A DNA stretch of 64,000 nt from Candidatus Poseidoniia archaeon (GTDB lineage Archaea; Thermoplasmatota; Poseidoniia; MGIII; CG-Epi1). Where the stretch lies: assembly GCA_030748895.1 (NCBI GenBank), contig JASMLC010000003.1, forward strand, positions 78,594-142,593. Reading direction: 5' to 3'. The position numbers were made by a program, and so were the translations under genes. Under the pieces are notes generated by a model. It was not told where the DNA came from and made no database searches. It saw only the letters and a program-made list of their open reading frames with translations. Positions 1 through 30,900 of the stretch are shown piece by piece; the stretch's first letter is position 1; the number at the start of each line of letters is the position of its first letter.

Positions 1-1186
1 CGAGCAGCGACTCCGCCAGCTTGAAGCGCGCGCGCGCCGACTCGGGATGCGCGACCAGCGCGTTGGTGTACTGCCGCTCCGCCTCGCCCGTCATCCCGGC
101 GTTGACCAGGATTTTGCCTTTCTCCATCCAGTCCAGGTCACGCATGCGGTTGCGCGCCTGATTGTCCATCGCGCGCACCGCCTCGTCGTAGCACTGCAGC
201 GCGTGCCGGCTGTCGCCGCGCGCGCGGCTGCTGTCGCCCAGCGCGACCCAGCAGAGAACGTGCTGGCCGTCGGCCGCCAGACCAAGGTTCAGGATGCGGC
301 GCGCCTCGTCGGGGCGGCCGAGCGCCAGCAGGCAGCGCGCCAGCGCCTCGTGGTAATCGGAGTCTCCGTCCTCGAGCTCGAGCGCAGTCTCCAGGAACTC
401 GAGCCCCTCCTCGGGACGGCCGAGCCGCGCCAGCGCACGGCCCTTAGCCATCCAGGCGTAGTGGAATGTGGGATTCATTTCGAGCGCCTGCTCGTGGTAC
501 TCGATGGCCTCCTCGTAGCGGTCCAGGTGGTCCAGCGCGTTGCCGATGTTGTTGATGGCGATGACGTATTCCGGGTCGATATCGAGCGACTTCTGGTAGA
601 ACTCGATGGATAGCTCGTATTCGCCCTGGTTATACTGCACGTTGGCCAGGTTGTTCCACGCAATCTTGTCGCGCGGGTCCAGTTCGACTGCGCGCTGGTA
701 GTAATCCTTGGCATCCGCCAGCCGCCCCGAGAGCTGTAGCGTGTAGCCGTAGTTATACCACGCCACCGCGTAAGTCGGGTCGGCACGCATTGACTCGTCG
801 TAGCAGCGCAGCGCTTCGTTCCAGCGGTCGAGCATGAAGTTGGCGAAGCCGCGGTTGTTCCACGCTGGCGCGTTGCGCGGCTCCAGCTCCAGCGCTCGCG
901 CGTACGACTCGACCGCCTGCGCGTAGCGCTCCATCCGTTGCAGCGCGTCGCCGCGGCGTACGTGGTAGCGCGCGATATCGGGCGCCAGCTCGCACGCCTG
1001 CTGGAAGGCGTGCAGCGCCCGGGCGGGGTTGCGACGCGCCATCTCGGCCATGCCGATGCTGTTGTGGAGCGAAGGGTCCTCCGGCGCCAGGTCCACCGCC
1101 CTGCGGAAGCAACTAATCGCCTTGCGGAGCTTCCTTTCGCGGACCAGTGCCTCGCCCTGTTCCACCAGTTCGTTGACGTCGGGCAT
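1..1186 (-). CDS. TPR repeat protein. N-terminus at 1186; the C-terminus runs off the window start.
   Basis: Minus-strand translation from the ATG at 1186 gives MPDVNELVEQGEAL... followed by continuous TPR repeats (AWYNYG, AWNNLA, YNQGEYELSIEFYQKSLDIDP...) with no stop down to position 1. The ATG overlaps the TAA of the upstream TPR gene as TAATG. The track does not list this ORF because no stop lies in the window. Confidence 0.7.
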   Translation of the reverse strand, partial: MPDVNELVEQGEALVRERKLRKAISCFRRAVDLAPEDPSLHNSIGMAEMARRNPARALHAFQQACELAPDIARYHVRRGDALQRMERYAQAVESYARALELEPRNAPAWNNRGFANFMLDRWNEALRCYDESMRADPTYAVAWYNYGYTLQLSGRLADAKDYYQRAVELDPRDKIAWNNLANVQYNQGEYELSIEFYQKSLDIDPEYVIAINNIGNALDHLDRYEEAIEYHEQALEMNPTFHYAWMAKGRALARLGRPEEGLEFLETALELEDGDSDYHEALARCLLALGRPDEARRILNLGLAADGQHVLCWVALGDSSRARGDSRHALQCYDEAVRAMDNQARNRMRDLDWMEKGKILVNAGMTGEAERQYTNALVAHPESARARFKLAESLL

Positions 1187-2310
1187 TAACGTTCCAGGAT
1201 TAGCTCGATGCGCGCTATCGCCTTATGGGTATCCTTCATCAGCCGCTCCCACTCAGAGCCGTCGTGGTGTTCGTGGCCCGACTCGTGTGCCAGCGTGTTC
1301 TGGTAGCATTCGAGCGCCTCGCGGGGACGGTCGAGCAGCTCGAGCGCGTAGCCCTTGTTGTGCCACGCCCAGGCGTAATCCGCCTTCAGCTCGATGGCGC
1401 GCTCGTAGCACGGAATGGTCTCCTCGATACGGTTGAGCTGTCGCAGCGTCACGCCGCGGTTGTTCCACGCCGAGCGGTTTTTGGGGTTGAGCTCGGTCGC
1501 GCGGGTGAACGCCTGCAACGCCTCCTTCAGGTTCCCGACGCGGAATAGTCCCTTGCCGAGGTTGAACCAGCAGGTGGCGTAGCGCGGGTTGGCCGCCAAG
1601 GCCCGTCGGTAGCTCTCGATGGCGCGATGGTTGTAGCCGAGCCGCGAGAGCGCGACGCCGCGGTCGTTGTAGACCACCTCATCCTCGGCTTCGAGGCTCT
1701 GCTGCAGCGCCTCTGCCGCGGCGCCCGGCTCGTCGAGCTGGTCGTGCGCCAGCCCCTTCGCCTCGAGCGCCGCCGTATCGCGCGGACGCCGGGCGAGGAT
1801 AGCGTCAAAATCCTGCAAAGCGTCGTTGTAGCGCCCCAGCGCGTGGAGCAGCTTGCCGCGGCGGTAGAGCAGCTCGCGGTCCGGTTTCCCGCGCCCGTCG
1901 GCAGCGTTGAGCGTCGCCAACGCCGCCTCGCCGTCACCGAGCGCCTGTTGGGCACGCGCCTTCAGCACGTGCGCCGCAATGTAGCGCGGCCGGATTTCGA
2001 GCGACCGCCCGGCGCAAGCCAATGCTTCTTCAGGGTCGCCGAGCAGAAGCTGCGCCAGCGCGCGGTCCTTCCACATGATTTCCGAGTGCGAGACGCCGTC
2101 GTGAATCTGCTCCAGCTCTTCCAGCGCCGCCTCTGGCCGGCCGGCCGCGAGGTGCACTTTGCCGAGGTCGTGTCGTAGCCGCTTGCTCTCCGGCTTGGCG
2201 GCCAGCGCCTTCTCGAGCGTGCGGCGGGCACGGCGGTAGTGGCCCAGCTTGAGCTCGGCCAGCCCTTCCGCGCGCAGCTCGTCGGCGTGGTTGCTGTCGT
2301 CGATAGGCAC
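1186..2310 (-). CDS. TPR repeat protein
   Basis: ORF 1186..2559(-) carries many TPR units (AWFNLG, AWNNRG, AWHNKGYALELLDRPREALECYQ). The N-terminal ~80 aa of the track ORF are low-complexity and run past the divergent TATA box. A GTG at 2310 with a TATA about 25 nt upstream is the likely leaderless start. Confidence 0.75.
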   Translation of the reverse strand: MPIDDSNHADELRAEGLAELKLGHYRRARRTLEKALAAKPESKRLRHDLGKVHLAAGRPEAALEELEQIHDGVSHSEIMWKDRALAQLLLGDPEEALACAGRSLEIRPRYIAAHVLKARAQQALGDGEAALATLNAADGRGKPDRELLYRRGKLLHALGRYNDALQDFDAILARRPRDTAALEAKGLAHDQLDEPGAAAEALQQSLEAEDEVVYNDRGVALSRLGYNHRAIESYRRALAANPRYATCWFNLGKGLFRVGNLKEALQAFTRATELNPKNRSAWNNRGVTLRQLNRIEETIPCYERAIELKADYAWAWHNKGYALELLDRPREALECYQNTLAHESGHEHHDGSEWERLMKDTHKAIARIELILER

Positions 2311-2330: not shown

Positions 2331-2366
2331 TTAAAATCCGCTGCGCCGAACAGCGCTTTATAATCC
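2331..2366. promoter_or_regulatory. Divergent archaeal TATA boxes serving the TPR gene (-) and hutH (+), both apparently leaderless
   Basis: AT-rich ttaaaatcc and ctttataatcc islands in a ~70% GC background, each about 22-27 nt upstream of the GTG starts at 2310(-) and 2384(+). Confidence 0.4.
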
Positions 2367-2383
2367 GGGCGAGGTGGCCGCGC

Positions 2384-3904
2384 GTGAAAGTCGAGCTTGA
2401 CGGCAGTTCGCTCACGATTGGGCTACTTGCGGGAGTCGCGTGCGACGAGGCGAGCGTTGCGCTGGCGCCCGCGGCCCGGAAGCGCATCGCTGCCAGCCGC
2501 GCCATGCTGGAAGAGAAAATCGCCGCGCATGAAATCATGTACGGCATTACCACCGGCATCGGCGAGTTCTCCGAACATACGCTTTCCCCCAGGGAGTTGC
2601 GCGACTTCCAGCGCTTCCTGGTCTACTCGCACGCCGCCGGTATCGGCGAGCCGCTGCCGGCGGCGGTCGTGCGCGGCGCGATGTGCGGCCGCGCCAACGT
2701 CCACTGCCACGGCCATTCCGGGGGGCGCCCGGCGGTGACCGACGCGCTGGTCGGTGCGCTCAACGCGGGGGTGACGCCGGTCGCGTGCGAGAAAGGCTCG
2801 GTCGGCGCGTGCGGCGACCTGGCGCCGATGTCGCAGGTGGCGCTCTGCCTGATGGGCGAGGGAGAGGCGTTCTACCGCGGAGAGCGGATGGACGCCGCGG
2901 CAGCGCTGGCGAAGGCGGGGCTCGAGCCGCTGGCGCTCGAGGCACGCGACGGACTGGCGCTGATTAACGGCTCCAACGTGCTGACTGCGTGGGCGGCGCT
3001 GCTGCTCCACGATGCGCAGCACTGGTTCAGGCTGCACGACATCGCCGCAGCAATGACTCTCGAGGCGTTGCTCGCTAACCAGAAGCCGTACGACGCGCGG
3101 CTGCACGAACTGCGCGGCTTCCGCGGCGCACAGGAAGTGGCGGCCAACTTGCGCAAGCTAATGGCAGACAGCCCCATCCTGGCGGCGCACGGCGAGAAGG
3201 TACAGGACGCCTACTCGATGCGCTCGACACCGCAGGTAGCGGGCGCACTGCGCGACGCAGTGCGCCACGCCGTCGGCGAAGTGGAGACCGAATTGAACGG
3301 CGTCGGCGACAATCCCATATTCCTTACCGAGGAGAAGGAGGTGCTCACCGGCGCCAACTTCCAGGGCACGCCGGTCGCGCTGCCGCTGGAGATGGTCGCG
3401 ACCGGGCTCAGCATGATTGCCGTACTGAGCGAGCGGCGCCTGAACCGGCTCACCAACCCGGCGCTCTCGGCGGGGCTGCCGCCCTTCCTGGCCGAGAAGC
3501 CGGGGCTCCACTCGGGGATGATGCTGGCGCAGTACACCGCCGACGCGCTGATTGCCGAGGCGCGCATCCTGTCGCACCCCGCCGTCAACCAGTCCATCCC
3601 CGCTGCCGCCGACCAGGAGGACTTCGTCTCGATGGGGCTGACGACTATGCAGAAGACGCAGCAGATTCTGGATAACTGCTTCGGCGTGCTCGCCATCGAG
3701 ATGATGGCCGCCGCGCAGGCGCTCGACCTGCGTGGCGACGAGCCGGCGGCCGGCACCGCTGCCGCACGCGGCGTAATCCGCGAGCACGTATCGCATCTGG
3801 ACGAGGACCGGCCGCTCTACCGCGACCACAACCGGCTGGTGCCGCTGCTGCGCTCGCCCGATATCACCAGCGCGGTCGAGGCGGCCGTCGGTAAACTGGC
3901 CTAG
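2384..3904 (+). CDS. hutH: Histidine ammonia-lyase, MIO-dependent aromatic amino acid lyase family
   Basis: Full-length match to the HAL/PAL family: GITTGIGEF, GSVGACGDLAPMS (the MIO loop), NGSNVLTAWAAL, QDAYSMRSTPQVAG, NFQGTPVALPLE. In frame with track ORF 2249..3904. Start placed at the GTG at 2384, behind the TATA at 2357. Confidence 0.85.
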   Translation: MKVELDGSSLTIGLLAGVACDEASVALAPAARKRIAASRAMLEEKIAAHEIMYGITTGIGEFSEHTLSPRELRDFQRFLVYSHAAGIGEPLPAAVVRGAMCGRANVHCHGHSGGRPAVTDALVGALNAGVTPVACEKGSVGACGDLAPMSQVALCLMGEGEAFYRGERMDAAAALAKAGLEPLALEARDGLALINGSNVLTAWAALLLHDAQHWFRLHDIAAAMTLEALLANQKPYDARLHELRGFRGAQEVAANLRKLMADSPILAAHGEKVQDAYSMRSTPQVAGALRDAVRHAVGEVETELNGVGDNPIFLTEEKEVLTGANFQGTPVALPLEMVATGLSMIAVLSERRLNRLTNPALSAGLPPFLAEKPGLHSGMMLAQYTADALIAEARILSHPAVNQSIPAAADQEDFVSMGLTTMQKTQQILDNCFGVLAIEMMAAAQALDLRGDEPAAGTAAARGVIREHVSHLDEDRPLYRDHNRLVPLLRSPDITSAVEAAVGKLA

Positions 3905-5247
3905 AGCGCGGCGCGAACGCGCGAGAGCAGCTCCGCAATCTCGTCGGCCGCAATCACCAGCGGCAGCCGGAAGCGAATTGAGCTGGAGCCCGATTTGAGC
4001 GCCATCACCTTCTGCGCCGCCAGCGCCGCCATCAGCGCGTCGCGCTCCGCTGCCGAAGGCAGCGTGAAGGCGATGAGGCTGCCGACGCCGCGCACGTTGC
4101 TGAAGCCGCCAGTCTCGCGCGCGAGAGCACGCAGCCCTGCCAGCAGTTCGGCGCCCCGCACGGCGGCGTTCTCACCGAGGCTTTCGGCTTCGATGATGTC
4201 GAGGAAACGGTGGCAGCGCACCATGTCCATCAAGTTGCCACCGAAGGTCGAGTTGATACGGCCCGACATCTGGAAGACGTTGTCAGCGACCTCGTCGATG
4301 CGCTCGGAGCAGTAGATACCGCAAACCTGCGTCTTCTTGCCGAAGGCGACGATATCCGGGGCAACACCGTGGTGCTGCCAGAACCACGGCTTGCCCGAGC
4401 CCCAGAAGCCGGTCTGCACCTCGTCGTAAATCAGCAGCGCCTCGCGGGAGTCGGCGTAGCCCCGCAACGCCTCGAAGAACTCGGGGCGAAAGTGGTTGTC
4501 GCCGCCCTCGCCCTGTAGTGGCTCGAGGATTATGGCGGCAATGCGGTCGTCGTGCTGCGCGAAAGCGGCCTCGATTTCAGCGCAGGCGCGCGCCTCCTCG
4601 GCGGCGATGTCGTTCGCAATTCCGCCGTCAGGGCCGAACTCGATGGTCGGGTTGTGGACCCGCGGCCAGTCGAACTTGGGGAAGAGGCCAATCTTGTCGG
4701 GCACGGTGTTGGTGAGCGAGAGGGTGTAGCCGCTGCGGCCGTGGAACGCGTCGCGCAGGTGCAGTATTACGAGGTCGTTTACGTCCGCCTCGAGGTCGGT
4801 GCGCCCCAGCTTGCGCGCCTTCCAGTCGAACGCTACCTTCAGCGCGTTCTCGACTGCCAGCGCGCCGCCAGCAACCCAGAAGTGGTACGGAAAGCCCGGG
4901 GGAGTGGCGCGGGTTGCGAACGCCTCGACGAAGCCGGCCATTTCCCGGGTGTAGATGTCGGAGTTGGCCGGGTTGGCGGTGCCGACCGCGCGCACTTTCG
5001 CGAGGAATTCCGGCGCCTGTAGCATCGGGTGGTTGTACCCGACCGGCCATGAGGCGAAGCAGGTGAAGCAGTCCAGGAACTCCGACTCGGTGCGGGCGTC
5101 GTAGAGCCAGGCACCGTGCGAGCGCTCCAGGTCAAGCACGACGTCGTAGCCGTCAACCAGCTGGTACCGCCGCAGCACTTCGTGGACGTCGGTCGCCGCG
5201 ATACCGTGCGCAACTGTCGTGGCTGCTCCAGATGAGGACGCTTCCAT
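3901..5247 (-). CDS. lat: L-lysine 6-aminotransferase (lysine epsilon-aminotransferase), class III PLP aminotransferase
   Basis: Colinear similarity to M. tuberculosis LAT: VHEVL..LVDG.D.VLDL.RS.G.YL.DA, FHGRSGYTLSLTNT, FPKFDWPR, EPIQGEGGDNHFRPEFF, DEVQTG, VAFGKKTQVCG, NVF...R.NSTWGGNL. ATG at 5247 is 32 codons inside the track ORF. Confidence 0.85.
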   Translation of the reverse strand: MEASSSGAATTVAHGIAATDVHEVLRRYQLVDGYDVVLDLERSHGAWLYDARTESEFLDCFTCFASWPVGYNHPMLQAPEFLAKVRAVGTANPANSDIYTREMAGFVEAFATRATPPGFPYHFWVAGGALAVENALKVAFDWKARKLGRTDLEADVNDLVILHLRDAFHGRSGYTLSLTNTVPDKIGLFPKFDWPRVHNPTIEFGPDGGIANDIAAEEARACAEIEAAFAQHDDRIAAIILEPLQGEGGDNHFRPEFFEALRGYADSREALLIYDEVQTGFWGSGKPWFWQHHGVAPDIVAFGKKTQVCGIYCSERIDEVADNVFQMSGRINSTFGGNLMDMVRCHRFLDIIEAESLGENAAVRGAELLAGLRALARETGGFSNVRGVGSLIAFTLPSAAERDALMAALAAQKVMALKSGSSSIRFRLPLVIAADEIAELLSRVRAAL

Positions 5248-5278: not shown

Positions 5279-5680
5279 TTAAGCCTGACGGCTGCGCAGC
5301 TTGCGCGCCAGCGCCGGCAGCTCCTCGACGCAGCTGATATCACCGCGCGAAATCAGCGCCAGCTCGCGCCGCAGTTCCAGGTCGGGCCGCAAGTCGCTGG
5401 CGCGGCCGAGGTCGGCGAGCTTGCGCGCCAGCCGGCCGCCGGTGCGGTCCCAGTCGGTCAGGATAGCGAAGCGGCCGCGCGACCCCAGTTGCGTAACCAG
5501 CGCCTCGACAGTCTGTAGCACCGAGTTGCCGCTGTTGAGCGAAACCAGTTGCAATTCGCAGAACTGGGCCAGCGCGGCGATGTCGCGCTGGCCCTCGATG
5601 ATTACCGGTCCCGGGAACTCCACGATTTTTTCGAACCACTGCTCCAGCGCGGCGAGCCGCGCCTCCCGGTCGTGCATCAT
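5279..5680 (-). CDS. Small Toprim-domain protein (archaeal UPF0292-like)
   Basis: VIIEGQRDIAAL...AILTDWDRTGGRLARKL fits the Toprim E...DxD signature. 133 aa. Confidence 0.55.
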   Translation of the reverse strand: MMHDREARLAALEQWFEKIVEFPGPVIIEGQRDIAALAQFCELQLVSLNSGNSVLQTVEALVTQLGSRGRFAILTDWDRTGGRLARKLADLGRASDLRPDLELRRELALISRGDISCVEELPALARKLRSRQA

Positions 5681-5682
5681 CG

Positions 5683-5982
5683 CTATCGTGCCTCCAGCCG
5701 TGCCAGCAGCGCGTCACGCTCGAGCGGGATGGCAACCTGCTTCGAGCGCGAGCGGTGACCGCGCAGCAGTTCGGCGCTGCCGGGCTCCAGCTCCAGTTCG
5801 TGCTCCAGCAGCGCCAGCAGCGCCACGTTGGCGCGCCCGCTGTGGGCGGGCGCGCTGACCGCGACGGTGAATGCCCCGCGCCACTCGTCGAATTCCCCGA
5901 GGGCGTCGCGGCTGGCGCCGGGGACCACGCGCAGCGTGAGCAGCGTCCCACCCTCAATCGCCTGGAGCGCAGCCCCGGCCAT
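5683..5982 (-). CDS. DUF167 (YggU-like) protein
   Basis: LRVVPGASRDALGEFDEWRGAFTVAVSAPAHSGRANVALLALL..ELLRGHRSRSKQVAI has the family pattern (RV.PGA.R.....GAL.V.V.APP..GKAN.AL..FLA). Confidence 0.55.
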   Translation of the reverse strand: MAGAALQAIEGGTLLTLRVVPGASRDALGEFDEWRGAFTVAVSAPAHSGRANVALLALLEHELELEPGSAELLRGHRSRSKQVAIPLERDALLARLEAR

Positions 5983-6030
5983 TGGTCCTGAATGGGCCGC
6001 GCCTATTTAGCCGGGCAGGAATGGGCTGCG

Positions 6031-6744
6031 GTGATTCAGGTCCGGGGCCTTACGCGCTATTATGGAAAATTGTGTGCGGTGCGCGACGTCAGCTTCGAGG
6101 TCCACCGCGGTGAAGTCTTCGGGCTGCTCGGGAGCAATGGCGCCGGGAAGTCGACCACCATCAAGATGCTCTGCGGGCTGCTCAAGCCGACCCGCGGCAG
6201 CGTCAGCATCGCGGGGGTGGACATGGCACGCAAACCGCTGCAGGCCAAGGCGATGCTGGGGTACCTCCCCGAAAATCCGGTGCTCTACGACCGACTGACC
6301 GGGATGGAAATGCTCGAACTGGTGGGGGCGCTGCGCAAGCTCTCGCCCAAGCTACTGGCGCAGCGTGCGAAATACTACGGCGAGGCGCTGGGGCTGGGCG
6401 GCCAGATGCAGTCCGAGGTCGGCACCTACTCCAAGGGGATGCGGCAGAAGCTGGCGATTGCGATGACGCTGGTGCACGACCCCGAGGCGGTGCTGCTCGA
6501 CGAGCCGGCCGCCGGGCTCGACCCGCGCTACACGCGGCTGCTGAAGGAGTGGGTGCGCAACCTCTCGCAGGGCGGCCATACGGTGCTGCTCTCGACCCAC
6601 ATTACCGAGATGGCGGCGTCGCTCTGCGACCGCATCGCGGTCATCGACCATGGGCGGCTGCTCTCGGTCGGGACGGTGCCAGAGCTGCTAAGCTCGACCT
6701 CCAGCGCCACGCTCGAGGATGCTTTCATCCGGCTGGTGGGCTAG
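6031..6744 (+). CDS. ABC transporter ATP-binding protein. No permease gene is adjacent.
   Basis: Walker A GSNGAGKST, Q-loop, signature YSKGMRQKLAIA, Walker B LLDEPAAGLD, H-loop. An in-frame GTG at 6031 lies about 25 nt after the TATA cctatttag (6002-6010). Track start is 5992. Confidence 0.8.
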   Translation: MIQVRGLTRYYGKLCAVRDVSFEVHRGEVFGLLGSNGAGKSTTIKMLCGLLKPTRGSVSIAGVDMARKPLQAKAMLGYLPENPVLYDRLTGMEMLELVGALRKLSPKLLAQRAKYYGEALGLGGQMQSEVGTYSKGMRQKLAIAMTLVHDPEAVLLDEPAAGLDPRYTRLLKEWVRNLSQGGHTVLLSTHITEMAASLCDRIAVIDHGRLLSVGTVPELLSSTSSATLEDAFIRLVG

Positions 6745-7229
6745 AACTCCAGCGCCGGGTATTCCCGCGCAGCTACGCGCAGGATACGCTGCGCCCACGC
6801 CAGCTTGCGTCGCTTGAGCCGCCCCCGGCTGCGCCCCGAGTAGGGGCCGACGGTGTCGAAGCTGAAGCCCGCCAGCCGCACGCGGCGCGCGCCGAGGGCG
6901 AGCGCCGCCAGCGCGGCGCGGTCACCATCGGTGAAACCACCCCAGCACGCGACGCCCGGGGCAGGGCGCACCGCGGTCAGCGCCGCCGGACGCAGCCGCG
7001 GCAGCCATTCACCCAGCGCGGCGAGGTTGTCGCCGTGGCCGTGGACCACCAGCGCCGCGCCGCCAGCGACGGCCCAGCGCAGGTCGTCGCGGTAGCCGTC
7101 GAGGTCGCTCACCACCAGCGCCGGCACGCGGTCGCGCTCGCGGCAGGCGCGCACTGCGCCATCGGCGGCGACCAGCGCGCCGCGCGGAAGCGCCTCGCCC
7201 GGGCGCAGCCCCGCGCCCACGACGACCAC
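6741..7229 (-). CDS. mptE: MptE-like 6-hydroxymethyl-7,8-dihydropterin pyrophosphokinase (DUF115). The N-terminus probably extends to about 7373.
   Basis: VVVVGAG...VVSDLDGYRDDL...VVHGHGDNLAAL...LAGFSFD match DUF115/MptE. The same frame upstream reads LNLEWWWPLQARLEREFGHDPRRETVALRLLQRL, an MptE-like N-terminus with no stop but also no ATG, GTG or TTG. Confidence 0.6.
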   Translation of the reverse strand: MVVVGAGLRPGEALPRGALVAADGAVRACRERDRVPALVVSDLDGYRDDLRWAVAGGAALVVHGHGDNLAALGEWLPRLRPAALTAVRPAPGVACWGGFTDGDRAALAALALGARRVRLAGFSFDTVGPYSGRSRGRLKRRKLAWAQRILRVAAREYPALEF

Positions 7230-7369: not shown

Positions 7370-10300
7370 TCAGAGCGGGTTGCCGTCTTCGTCGCAGGGA
7401 ACTTCTTCGCCCGAGTCGGGGTCGATGTAATAGAACGAGCCATCCTCGTCCTCGTAGATTTCGACCTCGTACTCCTCTTCGTCATCGCCCAGCTCGTCAT
7501 CGTAGTCGTCAGTAAAGCCGAAGTCCTCATCAGTGGAAGCCGCGGCACCGCTACCGCTCAGGAGGTCCATCAGGCTGCTCTCCTCCCGCGCCTCCTCGCG
7601 CGCGGTGCGGACAGACTCGATAGCCTCAATCTTGCGCTGGGTTGACTCGTATGCCTCGGTAATCTCAGTCAGCTTGGAGAACTGCTCGTCGCGCTCCATC
7701 TTGAGCACGTACGCCAGCTGTTCCTCAATCTGCCCCAGTTCGGTGCGAGTGTCGACCAGTCGGGTCAGCGTGCCGTGGAACCGGTTGGCGAGGAGCTCCA
7801 TGTCTGGCTCAGCCAGGTCAAGCTTGAGCTGTTCCTCTGCCGCAGTTTCGGCTGCCTCGGCAGCCTCGAGTTCGGCTAGCCGCTCTGTGGCGGCAATCTG
7901 CTGGGCCTTGACCAGGATTTCGTTGAAGGCCGAAAGGTGGGCCTCCAGCTTGGTCGCGACGCGGGATGCGTCGTAAGCTGCTACCTCGAGCAGTTCCTCG
8001 CGACCCTTGGAGGTCTCAAGGCGCTGTTCGACATCTGACAGACGGGCTCTTTCTTGCTTGTTCATACTTTCACCAGTAAATCCGCTCGTGCGGACGTTAT
8101 ACGCTGCAGCAGCCATCAGGAGGCCGAGAACCAGTCCGCCCACCAGGACGATGAAACTGCGGTTCCAATTATCTGCCACCATCACACTCTGGGCTTCCGC
8201 CACCACCACTTCCTGAGCCACAGTGGTAGTCACCGCGCCAGAGTTGTCAACTGCGGTGACCTGCACCTGATAGGTCCCGGGCGCCGCATAGGCGTGCTTC
8301 AGGTTCAGCGTGCTCTGACCAGTCAGGTCACTGCCGCTGAAGGAAATTTGCGAGCCATCGCCGAAGTCAACCACCAGCATCGCGATGCTGCCGTCGTCAT
8401 CGCTCGGGACTGCCAGAACAAACTCGACTGTGTGCTCCTCGACCACGCTGACGGTGTTGCCGTCAATCGTGATGCCCTCATCCTCGCTCACCGACGGTGC
8501 CGGGACCAAAGGCGCGCTGTTGGCTGCAGTTACCGCCGCGCTAAAGCTCGTGACCTGCCCGAGGCCATCGGTGGCGGTTAGCGAGATTGTGTAGTCACCT
8601 GCCGCCGCATAGGTGTAGTCCTGCGAGGCGCCGCCGTCAGCCATGCTGCTGCCGTCGCCAAAGTCCCAGTCAATCGTTAGCGCGCCGTCGGCGCCGCTCA
8701 GCGTAAAGGTGTGCGCGGAGCCAGCCAGGGTGCCGCCCGTGCTGAGCGACCAGCCTGAGGTGTCCTGCGGCAGGTTGGGAGTAATCGAAATCGCCTGCGA
8801 AGCGCCGGTGCCGTCAATCGACGGCGTGACCGTGAAGCCAGCGGAGCTCGCCGCGGTCGCGCCAGCCGGGACCATGACCGTCATCTGGACCGTCTGGAAG
8901 CCGCCCTTGGCGATGCGGAAGCTGGTCGTCGAGAAGCGCAGGTTGTCGTGGCCGGTGGTGACCACGATGGCGTAGTTGGTCGCGACGCTGCCGGTGTTGG
9001 TCACCGTGACGACCGTGGTCGCCGAGGTGCCGGGGTTGAGCAGGAAGCTGTCGTCAGCCGCGCTCACGCCCGCGCTACGCGCGTCGCTGGCGATGTCGAG
9101 CGTCGCGCTCGCGCTGTCATCGTCGGTGGCAACCGATATTGAGTAGCTGCTGCCAGCCGGAGTATCTTCGGGGACGCTAATCCAGACGCGGAAGTCGAAG
9201 CTGGCTCCCGCGGCGATTACACCGGTAGAGGTGGTATTCAGCGTCGCCCAGCCATTGGCCTCGCTGTTGCCGCTGATGTCGAAGCTGTAGCTCGCGTCGC
9301 CGTTACCGGTGCTGGTGACGGTGCCCGAAATCTGGAAAGAATCACCGGGATACGCTGCTGAAACTGCACCGAGCGAGATGCTCGAGCCAGTCACCAGCCC
9401 GGCGCTGCTGTCGGCCGAGTCGCTGTCGGAAGCGCCGCCGGTCGCGGTGAGCGTTACCGTGTCGCCCGCACCGTGCGCTGCGCCTGCGGGGACGTCGTGC
9501 GTGACCGTAACTAGCCGCACCTCGCCCATGCCGAGGCTCATCCCGCTGGAGGAAGCATCTGAAGCCCAGCTGCTGCTGGTCGAGATTGAGTAAGTATTGT
9601 CATAGTTGCCAGTATTCTGCACCGTGAAGGTGTGGGTCGTCGAACTGCCCGGTGCACCTTCCTGCGCGCTGGAGACTGCGGTAACTGCGACACCCTGCAC
9701 TAGCCCGACTGAGTAGCCCATGCTGTGCGAATCGGTCGCGGTGCCGTCGTTCTGCGAGGCGATATCGACGTCAAGCTGGTTCATAACGCCGTAGGTCAGG
9801 AAGGGGACGGTGATAGTGACGTCGAAGGTGGCCGAGCTGTTGTAGGCAACATCAACCGTCGCCGGGAAGCTAAGGTCCCAGCTTGCAAAGTTGCTGGCGC
9901 CGATGGTGTAAATGTCATCGGCATTGCCGCTGTTAGTAATCGTGAAGGTAACGGTGCGGTCACCCGGCGCGCCTGAGGTGTCAGCCGGCTCATCCATATC
10001 GGCGCCACCCACATAGTCGACGAAGAAGCTCGCAGTGCCGGCATCGCCGGTTGCGGGCACACCGAAACTATCGGTGGCACTGAAGGTAACAGTGCGAGTG
10101 CCACCACGGTCAATGAGGTCTGCCAGGTCAAGCGTGGCTGAATAGGTACCATCACTGTTGTCGTTGAGCGTGAGGATTCCATAGTGCTGGAGGTCGGCCG
10201 AAACTGTAAGTGAATCCCCATCGTCCTCGTTAATGTCACTGGCGCTGGCAGTGAAGGTGTAGGTGTCACCGGCACGTTCTGCAGTCCCGTTGGCCGTGAA

Positions 10301-11866
10301 GGCCGGCGCGTCGTTGACCGCAATCGAGCCGCCCGAAAGCTGTGCGGCGTCGTTGGCACCATTGTTGGCGTCGAAAGCCACGCTGTGGGAGCCCCATGCC
10401 ATAGTGCCATTGTAGGCGTACTCGGCGCCAGCAGCGTCAGCCGGGCTCTCCGAGTCGTTGGTCCGCGAGAGCGAGAAGGAGCTGCCACCGACAGTGACGG
10501 TAATGGTCGAGGCGTTAGTGCCGTTGTACTCGTGGTAGCGGACCGAGAAGTTGAAGTCATTGTTCTCACCGGCACTCGTCGGGGAAACCGAAGAGTCAGT
10601 CAGCCACGGAACATCTGTGCGTACCCAAACCGAGCCCGTCTCCACGTTAGAGGCGTCCATGCTGTCGTTCGAACTGGCAGCGAACACCGTCTTACCAGCT
10701 GCGAATACCTGGCTGTGCTCGTACTGCTCACCGTTGGTATAGTCACCATCACCACCTGCGGAAGCCGTCATGGTGACCTCGGTCCCGCTACAGCCATCAC
10801 TCAGGTCATCGTCACCGACACAGAGCGTAATCGAGCTGGGCGCCTGACCATTGACATCGGTGTAAGTAACGGTCACCGTAGCTGGATTAATCGGCAGCTG
10901 CACCGTTGAAGGCGTCGCCGCAATGGAGCTCAGGACCGGTTCGTCATTAACGCGAGGGCCATCGTAGGTATCGGAGGTTGCGTCGGCCTCCCCGTCAGAA
11001 CTAGTGAAGTAGAAGCTATGCATCCCCAAGCCAAGGTCGTCTGCCTGAGTGAACGAATGCTCGTAAACCTCACCATTAGTGAAATCTCCATCGTTACTGC
11101 TGGAGGAGGACATTACGTAAGCCGGAGTCTCGCCGTCAATGTGCAAAATCACCTCATCACCTGAAGGAGCGTCGCCGTCAAGGTCGGTGTAAGTGACCTG
11201 GAAGCCCACCGAGTCACTCGCGGAGATGGGCCAGTTGGACTCTCCCGGAGAAACCTGGCCGCCCGTGAGAGTCGGGGCGCGGTTCTGCTGGACCAGCGGA
11301 AGGCTCAGGTCCCATGCTTCCTCGTCTCCGACCTGACACTCCTCGGTGGGGCCGACGAGCCAGATACAGCTCATGCTGGCTATGTAGAAGGTGACGTCCC
11401 CATGGTGCTCTGAGGGTGCCCAAGCAAATTCCCACGACAAAGATTCGTCTCCGTCATCTTCGGAGTTGCTCATGATGTAGTCGTAACCATCCGAAGCGGT
11501 AACGAGGGTTGTATCACCCACCTCAATCGAGAAATTGCCGACTGAGTCGCCATTACCGTTGATAACCACCATCTCAAAACCGAACTTGTCGTGACCGCTG
11601 CCACTCACAACTACGTCGATGTCTACGTCCTCGCCGGGCACGTACTCTTCAACGCTGAGCGTTACGTCCAGCGAACTCTCACCATCGTTGGGATTAGCGT
11701 CGGTGTGGCATGCGGACGACGTGCAGTCACCATCGCCCGGCGCGCTGGAATAGCCTGGGTCAAGATCTCCGCCCTGATGTCCCTGCACATAACCTGCAGC
11801 GATGATGACTATCACCGTCACAATCATGATACCTGCCAATAGTTGTTCCGGCCGACGTGTCAGCAT
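7370..11866 (-). CDS. Giant acidic cell-surface protein: N-terminal signal anchor, reeler-like module, multiple PKD/Ig-like repeats, a C-terminal TM helix and a cytoplasmic acidic coiled-coil tail
   Basis: ATG at 11866 has a GGTG RBS 5 nt upstream. TM/signal MLTRRPEQLLAGIMIVTVIVIIAAGY. PKD signatures WDFGDGSSMADGG...YTYAAAGDYTISLTATD and VVDFGDGSQISFSG...HAYAAPGTYQVQVTAVD. Second TM SFIVLVGGLVLGLLMAAAAY, then an E/D-rich coiled coil ending DEDGSFYYIDPDSGEEVPCDEDGNPL. Rich in D, S, T and G. Confidence 0.8.
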   Translation of the reverse strand: MLTRRPEQLLAGIMIVTVIVIIAAGYVQGHQGGDLDPGYSSAPGDGDCTSSACHTDANPNDGESSLDVTLSVEEYVPGEDVDIDVVVSGSGHDKFGFEMVVINGNGDSVGNFSIEVGDTTLVTASDGYDYIMSNSEDDGDESLSWEFAWAPSEHHGDVTFYIASMSCIWLVGPTEECQVGDEEAWDLSLPLVQQNRAPTLTGGQVSPGESNWPISASDSVGFQVTYTDLDGDAPSGDEVILHIDGETPAYVMSSSSSNDGDFTNGEVYEHSFTQADDLGLGMHSFYFTSSDGEADATSDTYDGPRVNDEPVLSSIAATPSTVQLPINPATVTVTYTDVNGQAPSSITLCVGDDDLSDGCSGTEVTMTASAGGDGDYTNGEQYEHSQVFAAGKTVFAASSNDSMDASNVETGSVWVRTDVPWLTDSSVSPTSAGENNDFNFSVRYHEYNGTNASTITVTVGGSSFSLSRTNDSESPADAAGAEYAYNGTMAWGSHSVAFDANNGANDAAQLSGGSIAVNDAPAFTANGTAERAGDTYTFTASASDINEDDGDSLTVSADLQHYGILTLNDNSDGTYSATLDLADLIDRGGTRTVTFSATDSFGVPATGDAGTASFFVDYVGGADMDEPADTSGAPGDRTVTFTITNSGNADDIYTIGASNFASWDLSFPATVDVAYNSSATFDVTITVPFLTYGVMNQLDVDIASQNDGTATDSHSMGYSVGLVQGVAVTAVSSAQEGAPGSSTTHTFTVQNTGNYDNTYSISTSSSWASDASSSGMSLGMGEVRLVTVTHDVPAGAAHGAGDTVTLTATGGASDSDSADSSAGLVTGSSISLGAVSAAYPGDSFQISGTVTSTGNGDASYSFDISGNSEANGWATLNTTSTGVIAAGASFDFRVWISVPEDTPAGSSYSISVATDDDSASATLDIASDARSAGVSAADDSFLLNPGTSATTVVTVTNTGSVATNYAIVVTTGHDNLRFSTTSFRIAKGGFQTVQMTVMVPAGATAASSAGFTVTPSIDGTGASQAISITPNLPQDTSGWSLSTGGTLAGSAHTFTLSGADGALTIDWDFGDGSSMADGGASQDYTYAAAGDYTISLTATDGLGQVTSFSAAVTAANSAPLVPAPSVSEDEGITIDGNTVSVVEEHTVEFVLAVPSDDDGSIAMLVVDFGDGSQISFSGSDLTGQSTLNLKHAYAAPGTYQVQVTAVDNSGAVTTTVAQEVVVAEAQSVMVADNWNRSFIVLVGGLVLGLLMAAAAYNVRTSGFTGESMNKQERARLSDVEQRLETSKGREELLEVAAYDASRVATKLEAHLSAFNEILVKAQQIAATERLAELEAAEAAETAAEEQLKLDLAEPDMELLANRFHGTLTRLVDTRTELGQIEEQLAYVLKMERDEQFSKLTEITEAYESTQRKIEAIESVRTAREEAREESSLMDLLSGSGAAASTDEDFGFTDDYDDELGDDEEEYEVEIYEDEDGSFYYIDPDSGEEVPCDEDGNPL

Positions 11867-11947
11867 ATTTACACCTTTTTTGCGTGAGACGGAAGTCCTC
11901 CGTAATGGGCGGACTGACCTCTCTCGTAGCGCCTTCATACCCAAGGA

Positions 11948-26510: not shown

Positions 26511-27872
26511 TAGCGCGCCCAGCAACGCCGCCGCGGCCGCGACCAGCGCCAGCCGGTCCAGTCCTGGTGAGGGCGAGATGGCCCAGAGCGCGAGGCTGAA
26601 GCCGGCGAAGAGCAGCGCGCTCTGCTGCACCACGGCGCGGCGCGACTGTCCCACCTGCAGCATCAGCACCAGCACCAGCGTGAAAGTGAGCGACGCGAGG
26701 CGGAACGGCGCCGCGTAGCCGAGCAGCGTCCAGAGGCTGGTGCCGAGCAGCGGCCCGATGGCACGCGACAGTGCGCCCAGCGACTGGCTCAGTCCCAGCA
26801 CTGTCCCCTGCTCCTGCGGCCCCACCGCGCGCGAAATCAGCGCGTTGAGCGTCGGCTGGATGAAGCCACTGCCGAGCGAGAAAATCGTCGTTGCCAGCGC
26901 AACGCCTTCGAGCGTCGTCGTGTAGGGAATATAGCCCATACCGAGCAGCATCAACAACGCCCCCGCGCGCGAGGTCCATGCTTCGCCGCAGCGGCGCACC
27001 GCGGGGCCGACGAGGCCGCCCTGCGTCACGATGCTGACGCCGCCCATGTAGGCGAACAATACCCCGGATAGCCGCACCGGCAGCCCGATGCGCTCCTTCG
27101 AGAACTCGACGAAGGTGCCGAAGATGATTGAGAACGCCAGCAGGTAGAGCGTGAAGATAACCAGCAGCAGTCCCAGCCGCGGCTGGCGCAGGTAGGCGAG
27201 CGTCTCGCGCAGCGCTTCCCCCGGCGAGACGCGCGGCCGCACCATGTGGTCTGACGGGAGCGACTCGGGCAGCCAGCGCCAGGCGCAGAAGAGGTTCAGC
27301 AGCGCCAGCCCCGACCCGAAAAACGCCGGCAGCCAGAAGCCCCACTGCCCCAGCAGCCCGCCCAGCGCCGGCCCGCAGACAAAACCCAGCCCGAAGGCGA
27401 CGCCGAGCATCCCCATCCCCTGCGCGCGCTCCTCGGGCGGCGTCACGTCCGCCACGTAGGCGTACGCGGCGGCGTAGTTGGCGCTCATCACCCCCAGCAT
27501 GATGCGCGACAGGAACAGCACCCCCAGCAGGAGGCGGTTGTCGTCGCTCAATCCCAGCGCCGGGTCGGCCAGCCCGAACACCGCGTAGGCGACCGCCGCA
27601 CCACCGAGGCCGAGCATGATGACCGGCCGGCGGCCGATACGGTCGCTCAGCCGCCCCCACGCCGGAAGGCAGACGAACTGCGCCAGCGAGAAGGCGGTAA
27701 TCAGCAGGCCGACGGTGAGGATTGTACCGCCCAGTTCGGCCACGATGTAATTCAGCAACGGGATGAACATCGCGAACCCCGCAAGGTCGATGAACATCGT
27801 CAGCATCAGGATGTGGAGCGGCTTCACCGGCCCCGCAGGCGAGGGGGTGATATCAGGATGCTGCGCCGGCAA
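26493..27872 (-). CDS. MFS transporter
   Basis: 12-TM topology with MFS signature regions (GRLSDRIGRRPVI, tandem 6+6 helices). Confidence 0.85.
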   Translation of the reverse strand: MPAQHPDITPSPAGPVKPLHILMLTMFIDLAGFAMFIPLLNYIVAELGGTILTVGLLITAFSLAQFVCLPAWGRLSDRIGRRPVIMLGLGGAAVAYAVFGLADPALGLSDDNRLLLGVLFLSRIMLGVMSANYAAAYAYVADVTPPEERAQGMGMLGVAFGLGFVCGPALGGLLGQWGFWLPAFFGSGLALLNLFCAWRWLPESLPSDHMVRPRVSPGEALRETLAYLRQPRLGLLLVIFTLYLLAFSIIFGTFVEFSKERIGLPVRLSGVLFAYMGGVSIVTQGGLVGPAVRRCGEAWTSRAGALLMLLGMGYIPYTTTLEGVALATTIFSLGSGFIQPTLNALISRAVGPQEQGTVLGLSQSLGALSRAIGPLLGTSLWTLLGYAAPFRLASLTFTLVLVLMLQVGQSRRAVVQQSALLFAGFSLALWAISPSPGLDRLALVAAAAALLGALLTRKQ

Positions 27873-27939
27873 AACCGGCGGGATAGAACTTGCTTATATC
27901 CCCATGCGCCCTACCGCGCTCCCCGGGAAGAGGATTATC

Positions 27940-30900
27940 ATGCGCCAACATCTCAGAAATGCACTCGCCGTACTTGCGTCTGTAATCCTGTTTTCACTGG
28001 CGGCCACGACCGTAACGGGCGAGGGGGTGGACCTGACAATTACTTCCCTGGACTACACGAACGACTTTGAGACGGGAGATCCCGTTACCATCGTCCAGAG
28101 CGGGCGGGATGCTGGCACTGTATACAAATACAATTTTTACGACGATGATGATGATAACTGTGGTGAGCAGCGGTGTATCCCCGAGAACTGGTATGCGAAG
28201 AATTTTGACGACGCAATCTGGGATTCAGGAGCCGCACCATTCGGCAATAATGATCAGGCCGGCGCCAGTCCGGGCACGATGTGGCAAACAGAGGATGATC
28301 TGAATGACCACGTCATAATTCGCCATCACTTTACTTACAATGATGAGTATGATGCAATCAGTGCAACCCTGAACCTGGCCTACAATAACTACTATGTCGC
28401 CTACCTGAACGGGAACCTTATTCGAGACTGCTATTCTTACCAAAACAACAACAATTGTTATCAAGGCGACGCTGCATACTGGAACAATGAACTGACCTAT
28501 GACGGAGGCTCCCAGTCAGGGCCTAATCAAGATTGGCTAGTCGAAGGTGACAACGTACTTGCCATACTAGGGAGAGATAGTACTTGGGGTGGGGACCCTG
28601 ATCAGTGGCTTGATGTCGAACTCGTGGTCAACGTCCAGTCCTGGAGGGAAAAACCGATTATCCTCGGTGATGACCTGTGGCTGAGGGTGATTACTTCCAA
28701 CGTGGGAAACGAAACCGCTGAGAACTTCAGTGTCACGCTGGAAATCGAGGGTGAGGAGCTGGGGAATACTACCATAACTGAACTGGCACCTAATGCTACG
28801 GCTGAAAGTGTGTTCTACTGGACTCCGGAGGCGCTCGGAGACTTTAATCTCATGGCTTTTGCTGATGCTGGGCAAGATGTTGGGGAAAGCGATGAGAACA
28901 ACAATACCCTGAATCGCACAATACATATTGGGTTCTATGCGTACAATCTTACTGTGGAATCAAACCATGTTGTAGGAAATGTTACAGAGATTTTCAGGTA
29001 CAATCTAACTGTCACTAACGAAGGCGACGTGGAAGACAATTTCACCCTCTCAGCCTCAGGTATTTTCTACAATTGGGATTGGACCCTTACGCCCAGCGTA
29101 CTTCACCTGCAACCCGGAGAGGGCGGGAATGCGACTCTTGAAATAGTTCCGGACAGAGAGACGTTGGCTGGGAATTACTCCGTGTTCATGAGTGCCAGGT
29201 CTCAGTACTATAGTGAATTCAGGGAGAGCGTAGTCCTGAGTGGCCGGGATAACGAGACAGAATGGTGGTGGGCCCATTCCAATAGCAGTAACACGCGACT
29301 CTACTATTGCACGGACAATGATGAACCCGACGACCCAGATTATGAATGCGATATCAGCTGGACCGAACTGGACTTCGACTATGATGACAACTGGACCCTT
29401 GACCCGGCACCCTTCGGAGATACCGACATAGGCAATGTAGACAACAACACGGTCTGGCAAGGCAACAGTTACGCCTACTTCCGCCATATATTCACTATCG
29501 ATAATATCTCGGCTTACGAAGGGGGCAGCCTGAGCCTGAATACTGCGGCAAACAACTACGGGACCTACTACCTGAACAGCCAGATAGTGTTCAATGACAT
29601 GCGGCAGGGTCAGGGACACACCGCGAATTACTGGAACGATGAAACCCTGTTTGGACCCGAACTCCTGCAGGAGGGCGAAAATATCCTGGCGTCAGTAGTC
29701 CGGGAAACTGGAAACACCCAGTGGTTTGATGAGGAAGTGGTGGCTGTTTTCTCCCAATCCGCAGCCTGGGATTTCGTTCCGCTACCACTGGAACTGGAAA
29801 TGGAGGTACTGCCGACCTATAATTTCTCGCTCTCGGCTCCCATTAGCAACAAGCAGATTCCGGACGACACTAACTACACCTTTCAAGTCTGGATTACCAA
29901 TCTGGGAAACATCGGAGATACCTATGAGATGGTAGTCACACTAAACGACACCTACAACTTCACAATTCTTAACTACACCACCACTGAAATGCACAGCGTT
30001 GTTGGAGAGGGGGCAATAGGTTACATTAATGTCACCATGCGCGACCTTATCGAGGAAGACGCGCGTGGCGGTTTCAATGTTACTGTAATTTCGCGCAACT
30101 CGACCGAACAACTCACTAAATGGATTGAGCTGACTGCAAGGCTCTATATCGTGCCTGACACACTGCGTCCTGTTACGGAGGCTATAACAGATCCACTCGT
30201 CAACTCGACCTCGTTCCAGGTAGGGTGGGAAGTAGCCGAATGGTATCGCCTCGATGAGGTGCTCGGCAACGACACCTTGGTGGTAACCGTCGAATACCGG
30301 CGCGACAACGGCAGCGGCGGCTGGGAGGAGTGGCAGGTGTGGCAGGTCTTCACGGCCGAGGACGAGGACAATCCGCTCGGCAGCGGGAGCGGAACCTTCT
30401 CGCTGGGTGAGGACGGCCGCAGCTTCCAGTTCCGGGCAACCGGCCTCGACGACGACGGGCTGCTGGAGGACAAGACGGGACGCAATGACACCGAGACGCT
30501 GGTCGACACGACCCCGCCGACGGTCGCCGTTTCTAGCGACCCGGCCGGCGCGCTGCTCAGCACCGACTATCTCGAGCTGAGCTGGGAGAGCAGCACCAGC
30601 GACCTTGCTGGCTACGACCTGCAACATTCGTTTGACGGCGGCGCGTGGGAAACGCTGCTGGCCGACTCGCTCGCGACGCGCTACGACTACTACGTCACGG
30701 CCGACGGTAGCCACGCCTTCCGCGTCATCGCGAGCGATGACGCGGGCAACCGCGACGTGCCCGACACGCCCCAAATCAGCATGGTCATCGACACCGCAGC
30801 CCCGACGGGGAGGCTCGCGTCGCTGGAGCCGCTGACCGGCGCGCTGGCGGTGACGTTGCTGCCATCGCAGGACAACGCCAGCAGCTACAACCTGAGCTAC

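Follow-up and report, generated by a model that had tools for sequence, protein, structure and literature searches.

Ala-Cys-Gly in place of Ala-Ser-Gly at the cofactor-forming position of a probable histidine ammonia-lyase from a Candidatus Poseidoniia archaeon and its relatives

A gene for a histidine ammonia-lyase (HAL) was examined in a 64,000-nucleotide stretch of DNA, hereafter the window, from a Candidatus Poseidoniia archaeon (assembly GCA_030748895.1, contig JASMLC010000003.1, positions 78,594 to 142,593 of the forward strand). The tripeptide from which such enzymes form their 4-methylideneimidazole-5-one (MIO) cofactor reads Ala-Cys-Gly (ACG) in its product and not Ala-Ser-Gly (ASG). 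Judging from sequence, conservation, distribution and gene neighbourhoods, it is very probable that this is the functional HutH of a planktonic marine, GC-rich archaeon of the Thalassarchaeaceae (Marine Group IIb, Poseidoniales) and would convert L-histidine to urocanate and NH3 in ordinary histidine catabolism, its MIO arising by loss of H2S from the cysteine; the enzyme activity and the chemistry of H2S elimination are the predicted parts of this reading. The gene and the tripeptide are located as follows.

2384..3904, plus strand: hutH-type histidine ammonia-lyase gene, 506 aa, GTG start, TAG stop (translation, NCBIfam, alignment to the Pseudomonas putida HAL)
2807..2815, plus strand: MIO-precursor tripeptide Ala142-Cys143-Gly144 (gcg 2807-2809, tgc 2810-2812, ggc 2813-2815)

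The open reading frame (ORF) runs from GTG at 2384 to TAG at 3902-3904, and its 506-aa translation contains the loop CEKGSVGACGDLAPMSQV. Matches at E <= 1e-30 were obtained to 39 PDB sequences, the best being the P. putida HAL 1gkm (E = 2e-100 over residues 7-501), and in a gap-free alignment to this enzyme Cys143 of the window HAL falls exactly on Ser143. The homology to PF00221 (aromatic amino acid lyase/MIO superfamily), a match precomputed for an identical protein, is full-length; the central Ser of the X-Ser-Gly motif of this family is replaced in the window HAL, with the flanking Ala and Gly kept. The protein scores 543.9 bits against NCBIfam NF006871, a model of a HAL subfamily with a cut-off of 524. 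Tyr53, Ser82-His83, Asn195, Gln277, Tyr280, Arg283, Phe329, Met382 and Glu414 are the same in the window and P. putida enzymes, leaving Ser143 to Cys as the sole active-site difference between them. In an alignment of 85 members of the window HAL's subfamily, Y53, H83, A142, G144, N195, Q277, Y280, R283, F329 and E414 were invariant and position 82 was Ser or Asn, and the window HAL possesses these HAL-specific substrate and catalytic residues, among them the Ser/Asn82-His83 switch, Glu414 and Tyr53. The His-Leu or Phe-Leu selectivity switch of Tyr and Phe enzymes was not found in the window HAL, whose switch residues are Ser-His, and its scores on models of Tyr/Phe lyases and aminomutases all fell below the cut-offs (TIGR03832, 378.9 against 501; TIGR04475, 328.8 against 800; NF053541, 317.1 against 700; TIGR01226, 240.7 against 519). 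Apart from the X-Ser-Gly motif taken literally and an equivalog score that is marginal, all sequence criteria make the window protein a HAL, and an earlier note on this DNA that had placed it in this family is borne out by the P. putida match, the NF006871 score and the conserved residues. The public names of close homologs are inconsistent, being given as 'phenylalanine', 'aromatic amino acid' or 'histidine' ammonia-lyase.

Among the protein clusters closest to the window HAL (68-96% identity), all 120 read ACG, and those of their members with a named source are labelled Poseidoniia, Marine Group III, Thermoplasmatota and similar. The best 150 representatives of 50%-identity clusters read ASG in 126 cases, SSG in nine, ACG in six, and TSG and CSG in one each. 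In a rough tree these six ACG sequences represented at least three lineages, namely that of the window HAL, that of clusters P0189 and P0209, and P0200, which places two further, unrelated ACG lineages among more distant HALs. A scan of GTDB, with one genome per species, returned 80 subfamily loci with 59-97% identity to the window HAL, 41 of them ACG and 36 ASG; the hosts were archaea together with Chloroflexota/Anaerolineales, Acidobacteriota, Ignavibacteria, KSB1, Aminicenantes and others, and the closest locus from a named genome (97% identity) belonged to a metagenome-assembled genome (MAG) of Candidatus Thalassarchaeaceae. At residue 143 of the 85-member alignment, Cys was found 48 times and Ser 37 times. 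The earlier note had described ACG as unusual for a natural sequence, a view that cannot be maintained given the Cys in all of the nearest clusters and in the majority of subfamily members, and these cluster and GTDB counts, which make ACG common in a HAL subclade, rule out the reading of a rare natural variant. One of the closest clusters (P0107, Poseidoniales) has GACGG instead of GACGD and is missing Asp145, which stands directly after the tripeptide in almost every other sequence of the alignment, the exceptions including a few outliers that lack MIO.

Cys and Ser have replaced one another repeatedly within the subfamily. The proteins of loci L052 (Ser) and L039 (Cys), which are 90% identical, differ at residue 143, and in a neighbor-joining tree the outgroups were all Ser, the basal lineages of the subfamily were all Cys and at least 14 switches were needed; this tree is crude, but at least seven sister contrasts between Ser and Cys can be seen in it. 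The codons used at residue 143 were TGC (30), TGT (17), AGC (21), AGT (2) and TCN (9), with a few of the loci duplicating each other. Each family of Ser codons lies one step from TGY and two from the other Ser family, so that Cys can act as a bridge between AGY and TCN. On this comparative evidence, Cys and Ser would be interchangeable MIO precursors in this HAL subfamily, Cys is probably its ancestral state, and Cys is fixed in those of its members that come from Poseidoniales, as represented by the sequences compared. Locus L045 (Melioribacteraceae) apparently has two genes of this kind, an ACG-type HAL and a HAL-like one that carries Ser-Ser-Gly together with an APLSH loop.

In MIO formation, the amide nitrogen of Gly144 attacks the carbonyl of Ala142, after which water is lost and residue 143 gives up its side-chain leaving group by beta-elimination. 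The MIO of the window HAL would form autocatalytically from Ala142-Cys143-Gly144 through the usual backbone cyclisation, with the exocyclic methylidene produced by beta-elimination of H2S from Cys143, replacing the loss of water from Ser143, and the mature cofactor, and hence catalysis, would be the same as in a canonical HAL. The engineered S143C form of P. putida HAL is reportedly active, with S143A and S143T inactive (Langer et al., 1994, Biochemistry 33:6462). The exchange of Ser and Cys between 90%-identical orthologs in which the catalytic residues are invariant would be expected only if both yield the same active enzyme, and such swaps in a frozen active site offer independent comparative support for the formation of MIO from Cys. 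The earlier note had also suggested that Cys may alter redox sensitivity; as the sulfur would be lost during MIO formation, such an effect is improbable once the enzyme has matured.

Orthologs of the window HAL are found next to genes of histidine degradation. A hutU gene stands immediately beside an ACG-type HAL at four archaeal loci (L016, L017, L018 and L019) and one bacterial locus (L039), with the hutU of L016 and L018 scoring above the cut-off of the hutU equivalog TIGR01228, and hutU also adjoins ASG members of the subfamily at L023 and L024. A Poseidoniales MAG (L092) encodes an ACG-type HAL 68% identical to that of the window, preceded on the same strand by genes for glutamate formimidoyltransferase (ftcD; 351.7 bits on TIGR02024, cut-off 221), an FTCD_C cyclodeaminase-like protein and hutU, in that order, with a hutI-like gene 5 kb away that scores just under the hutI cut-off (295.7 against 298.15). 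In a further genome (L093, GCA_018676015.1) a canonical ASG HAL, 36% identical to the window HAL, lies directly downstream of a long archaeal-type hutU and overlaps it by 4 nt. As archaeal-type hutU precedes an ACG HAL in L092 and an ASG HAL in L093, both types of HAL fill the same slot in the pathway. In the 'MGII Core' sheet for Marine Group II (MGII) archaea (Tully, 2019, Supplementary Data 10; PMC6336850), hutH is listed for 112/158 and 77/92 genomes, hutU for 118/158 and 78/92, and FTCD for 118/158 and 71/92. Histidine catabolism is not mentioned in the main texts of two large MGII genome papers and appears only in a supplement. A search with the archaeal HutU of L016 gave abundant homologs named Thalassarchaeum, Poseidoniaceae and Thermoplasmatota, none of which, when ranked by GC-linked amino-acid composition, was as GC-rich as the window. 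The window HAL would feed the ordinary tetrahydrofolate-dependent route from histidine to glutamate through hutU, hutI and ftcD. The urocanate hydratases of Poseidoniales are 665-701 aa long (L016:909-2933, L092:10001-12025, L093:10001-12037), having an N-terminal extension of approximately 100 aa beyond the hutU model, and are about 37% identical to a bacterial HutU; L018 carries a bacterial-like one, with 59% identity.

A number of points weigh against a HutH of ordinary function with a Cys-derived MIO. On the hutH equivalog model TIGR01225 the window HAL scores slightly below the cut-off (521.7 against 539.15); the L092 ortholog, which lies inside a hut cluster, scores likewise (539.5 on NF006871 and 517.0 on TIGR01225). 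No hutU, hutI or ftcD was found in the window by tblastn with bacterial and archaeal HutU, HutI, HutF and FtcD or by scanning ten ORFs of compatible size with Pfam, and none was present in the 10 kb upstream of it; within the window, the separation of the HAL gene from hutU and hutI that had been noted earlier is thus upheld. These pathway genes were located in the order and in sister lineages, and by extension they would be present in the window's own genome, where we infer that they are dispersed. HAL activity of the window protein, and of natural ACG enzymes generally, is predicted from sequence, and the formation of MIO from Cys is argued by analogy with one engineered mutant. Finally, a single mutation would suffice to give Ser, yet none of the 120 archaeal clusters has a Ser variant, whereas bacteria flip freely between the two residues, a hint that Cys may not be strictly neutral in these archaea.

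This last point would be explained if Cys were a selected alternative MIO precursor and not a neutral stand-in for Ser, giving faster or fuller maturation, or maturation under conditions where the Ser type fails (such as cold, or a certain pH or redox state). Such an advantage might follow from a thiolate leaving more readily than hydroxide, and selection of this kind would account for the Cys in all 120 Poseidoniales clusters. We consider this possible but rather unlikely. Were it true, one H2S would be released per maturation event and the MIO position would be a rare example of an essential-Ser site at which Cys is a viable bridge between AGY and TCN codons.

A second possibility is that Cys143 is retained, so that MIO is absent or contains sulfur, in a protein that is catalytically different, redox-regulated or an inactive paralog. 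It draws on the lack of a characterised natural ACG enzyme: Ala-Cys-Gly is nowhere paired with MIO, nor S143C with histidine ammonia-lyase, in the searchable literature, outside which most subscription journals lie, so that an earlier mention is possible, and no PDB entry with a natural ACG was seen among the matches listed, the five best to the MIO-loop fragment all reading ASG. It draws also on an ACG paralog, P0189, that has the further changes Q277R and Y280L and lies beside a normal ASG copy. The tandem paralogs, ASG first and ACG second, belong to a classical hut operon (L008:6457-9536, JGI contig Ga0484957_001073) with hutU, hutI and a further amidohydrolase followed by ABC transporter genes; the ACG sequence P0209, a relative of P0189, has the same two substitutions, which suggest that the ACG copy may be catalytically divergent. 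In the subfamily of the window HAL, however, Ser and Cys are swapped at 90% identity with every catalytic residue invariant, and no HAL other than the ACG gene was seen beside hutU in L092 (over 22 kb) and in L016-L019 (within 3-kb flanks). The reported activity of engineered S143C HAL also speaks against this possibility. Retention of Cys143 seems improbable to us.

The earlier note had also proposed a non-canonical role for the HAL, in view of its distance from hutU and hutI and of the neighboring gene:

3901..5247, minus strand: L-lysine 6-transaminase (LAT) family gene, 448 aa, convergent with the HAL gene (TIGR03251 LAT_fam; 448-aa gene call in L001-L004; ORF listing)

The last 4 nt of this gene (ctag, 3901-3904) are also part of the HAL gene, and its product scores 543.6 bits on the curated NCBIfam model for L-lysine 6-transaminase, TIGR03251 (cut-off 520.8), in agreement with the overlap and the convergent lysine 6-aminotransferase gene described in that note. 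Under this proposal the enzyme would act on another substrate (as a Tyr or Phe lyase, an aminomutase or an enzyme of modified histidine) and work with LAT in the synthesis of a specialised metabolite. Besides the absence of hutU and hutI from its side and the score just below the hutH equivalog cut-off, a class-III aminotransferase gene is convergent against the HAL gene throughout the Poseidoniales, and two Acidobacteriota (L038:4664-6010, 656.9 bits; L062, about 5619-6935) likewise have a true LAT gene that lies downstream of an ACG-type HAL and points towards it. Moreover, P0121 (L010:5368-8225), which at 48% identity is the most distant of the ACG lineage of the window HAL and keeps all HAL residues, is directly followed by an AMP-binding (CoA-ligase-like) gene, an arrangement more typical of tyrosine or phenylalanine ammonia-lyase (TAL or PAL) pathways, as in pairs of TAL and 4-coumarate-CoA ligase.

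Against this stand the Ser-His switch, Glu414 and the other catalytic residues, all conserved, scores on the tyrosine aminomutase, TAL and PAL models far under their cut-offs, and the orthologs in hutU and ftcD clusters. The LAT and HAL genes, being convergent, share no transcript and form no operon. In low-GC Poseidoniales the convergent gene encodes a different aminotransferase of 506 aa, which is 23% identical to the window LAT, gives only 64-70 bits on the LAT model and is not a LAT. The order TPR, TPR, HAL, convergent class-III aminotransferase, small ORF(s), ABC ATPase, MptE-like and giant PKD protein is kept in a relative with a 68%-identical HAL, and the block of conserved gene order around HAL extends over at least 17 kb, so that the adjacency of HAL and aminotransferase belongs to conserved gene order and not to a dedicated cluster. 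When the 145 ORFs lying nearest to the HAL genes of the 80 species were pooled and scanned with Pfam, the neighborhoods proved heterogeneous, with no consistent HAL partner and no recurring biosynthetic genes; the recurring metabolic domains were urocanase (four upstream and one downstream), the only recurring related enzyme, and Aminotran_3 (five). A HAL-LAT operon was thus ruled out, the genes being convergent, the partner not orthologous across Poseidoniales and no consistent partner emerging from the neighborhood scans. Given the conserved residues, the ACG orthologs beside hutU or within an ftcD cluster and the place of these genes in the MGII core, we regard the non-canonical role as unsupported and improbable. 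The pairing of HAL and LAT in Acidobacteriota and in the window may reflect joint transfer between domains, or chance. The gene convergent with HAL was a class-III aminotransferase in all Poseidoniales examined, the 506-aa form of the low-GC lineages (L005:11521-13041, L012:4523-6043) differing from the window LAT through either displacement at the same place in the gene order or extreme divergence.

A Ser codon turned into Cys by faulty sequencing or assembly, TGC being one substitution away from AGC or TCC, is so improbable that it can be set aside, since all 120 nearest clusters read ACG, with TGC and TGT both used among relatives, and assembly error is ruled out by identical DNA in four assemblies. 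Four contigs that were assembled independently, and that diverge in their flanks, carry the 1521-nt gene without a mismatch, and the exact 506-aa protein is indexed in 43 blocks of a public collection, including the NCBI MAG GCA_002495305.1, and occurs on at least 21 contigs. The use of both codons by relatives indicates that Cys is kept at the amino-acid level. The reading of the central MIO residue as Cys (gcg tgc ggc) in the earlier note is confirmed by the translation, the P. putida alignment and these assemblies.

The preferred reading, a HutH with MIO derived from Cys, indicates no new pathway or mechanism and is a modest curiosity. It does mean that the textbook rule of X-Ser-Gly for MIO is incomplete, as Ala-Cys-Gly and Ala-Ser-Gly are used with roughly equal frequency across a large natural subfamily. 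The PROSITE signature for PAL and histidases requires the central Ser, and motif-based annotation that demands this residue will misname or miss ACG enzymes. Natural pairs of 90%-identical Ser and Cys enzymes are well suited to a comparison of the kinetics of cofactor maturation. Among the members of the subfamily using ACG is the HAL of Marine Group II, a group reported in the literature (PMC6461757) to outnumber all other archaea at the ocean surface.

Two further features were noted on the upstream side of the HAL gene.

2357..2377, plus strand: putative archaeal TATA-like box tttataat (2357-2364) and Shine-Dalgarno-like gaggtgg (2371-2377), read from the sequence, function predicted
1186..2310, minus strand: TPR-repeat protein gene, 374 aa, divergently oriented to HAL (TPR matches in Pfam and gene calls, both in L001-L004 and mapped to the window; ORF listing)

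The spacer between the HAL gene and the divergent TPR gene is 73 nt long and holds both tttataat and gaggtgg ahead of the GTG, and the choice of GTG 2384 as the start is supported by the lengths of homologs (506-507 aa) and by independent gene calls. The GC content of the window is unusually high, at approximately 67%, against 34-59% in its relatives overall and 34-36% in those relatives (L005, L012-L014) that have the gene order in common with it and a HAL of 65-69% identity, so that composition diverges very widely inside a single order of archaea. A giant ORF of 1384 aa (27763-31917) spans a GC trough (0.50 at 28-30 kb, compared with about 0.67 around it), and a second giant ORF of 1524 aa (7370-11944) is rich in PKD domains.

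When compared with known systems, the window HAL is closest in kind to HutH of P. putida (PDB 1B8F, 1GKM), with which it shares length class, fold family, A142, G144 and the active-site residues listed above. It differs from that enzyme in having Cys for the central Ser and an APMSQ loop where P. putida has APLAH, and enzymes of the window type also have a conserved Cys eight residues upstream (VCxKGSVGA[C/S]GD). The engineered P. putida S143C has the same Ala-Cys-Gly precursor at the corresponding position and offers a precedent for Cys as a source of the dehydroalanine/MIO electrophile; that protein, however, is a laboratory mutant, whereas the Cys of the window HAL is natural and the majority state in a subfamily that spans several phyla. 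The ASG HAL of L093 likewise comes from Poseidoniales and occupies the same place directly downstream of an archaeal-type hutU, but it differs from the window HAL in its 36% identity, its ASG tripeptide, its APLSH loop and its score of 593.9 bits, which is above the hutH equivalog cut-off. Like ACG, the SSG, TSG and CSG variants represent natural variation of the precursor tripeptide within PF00221. In these it is the first residue that varies, and the central Ser, from which the methylidene carbon comes, is retained, whereas ACG alters the very residue that has to undergo beta-elimination.

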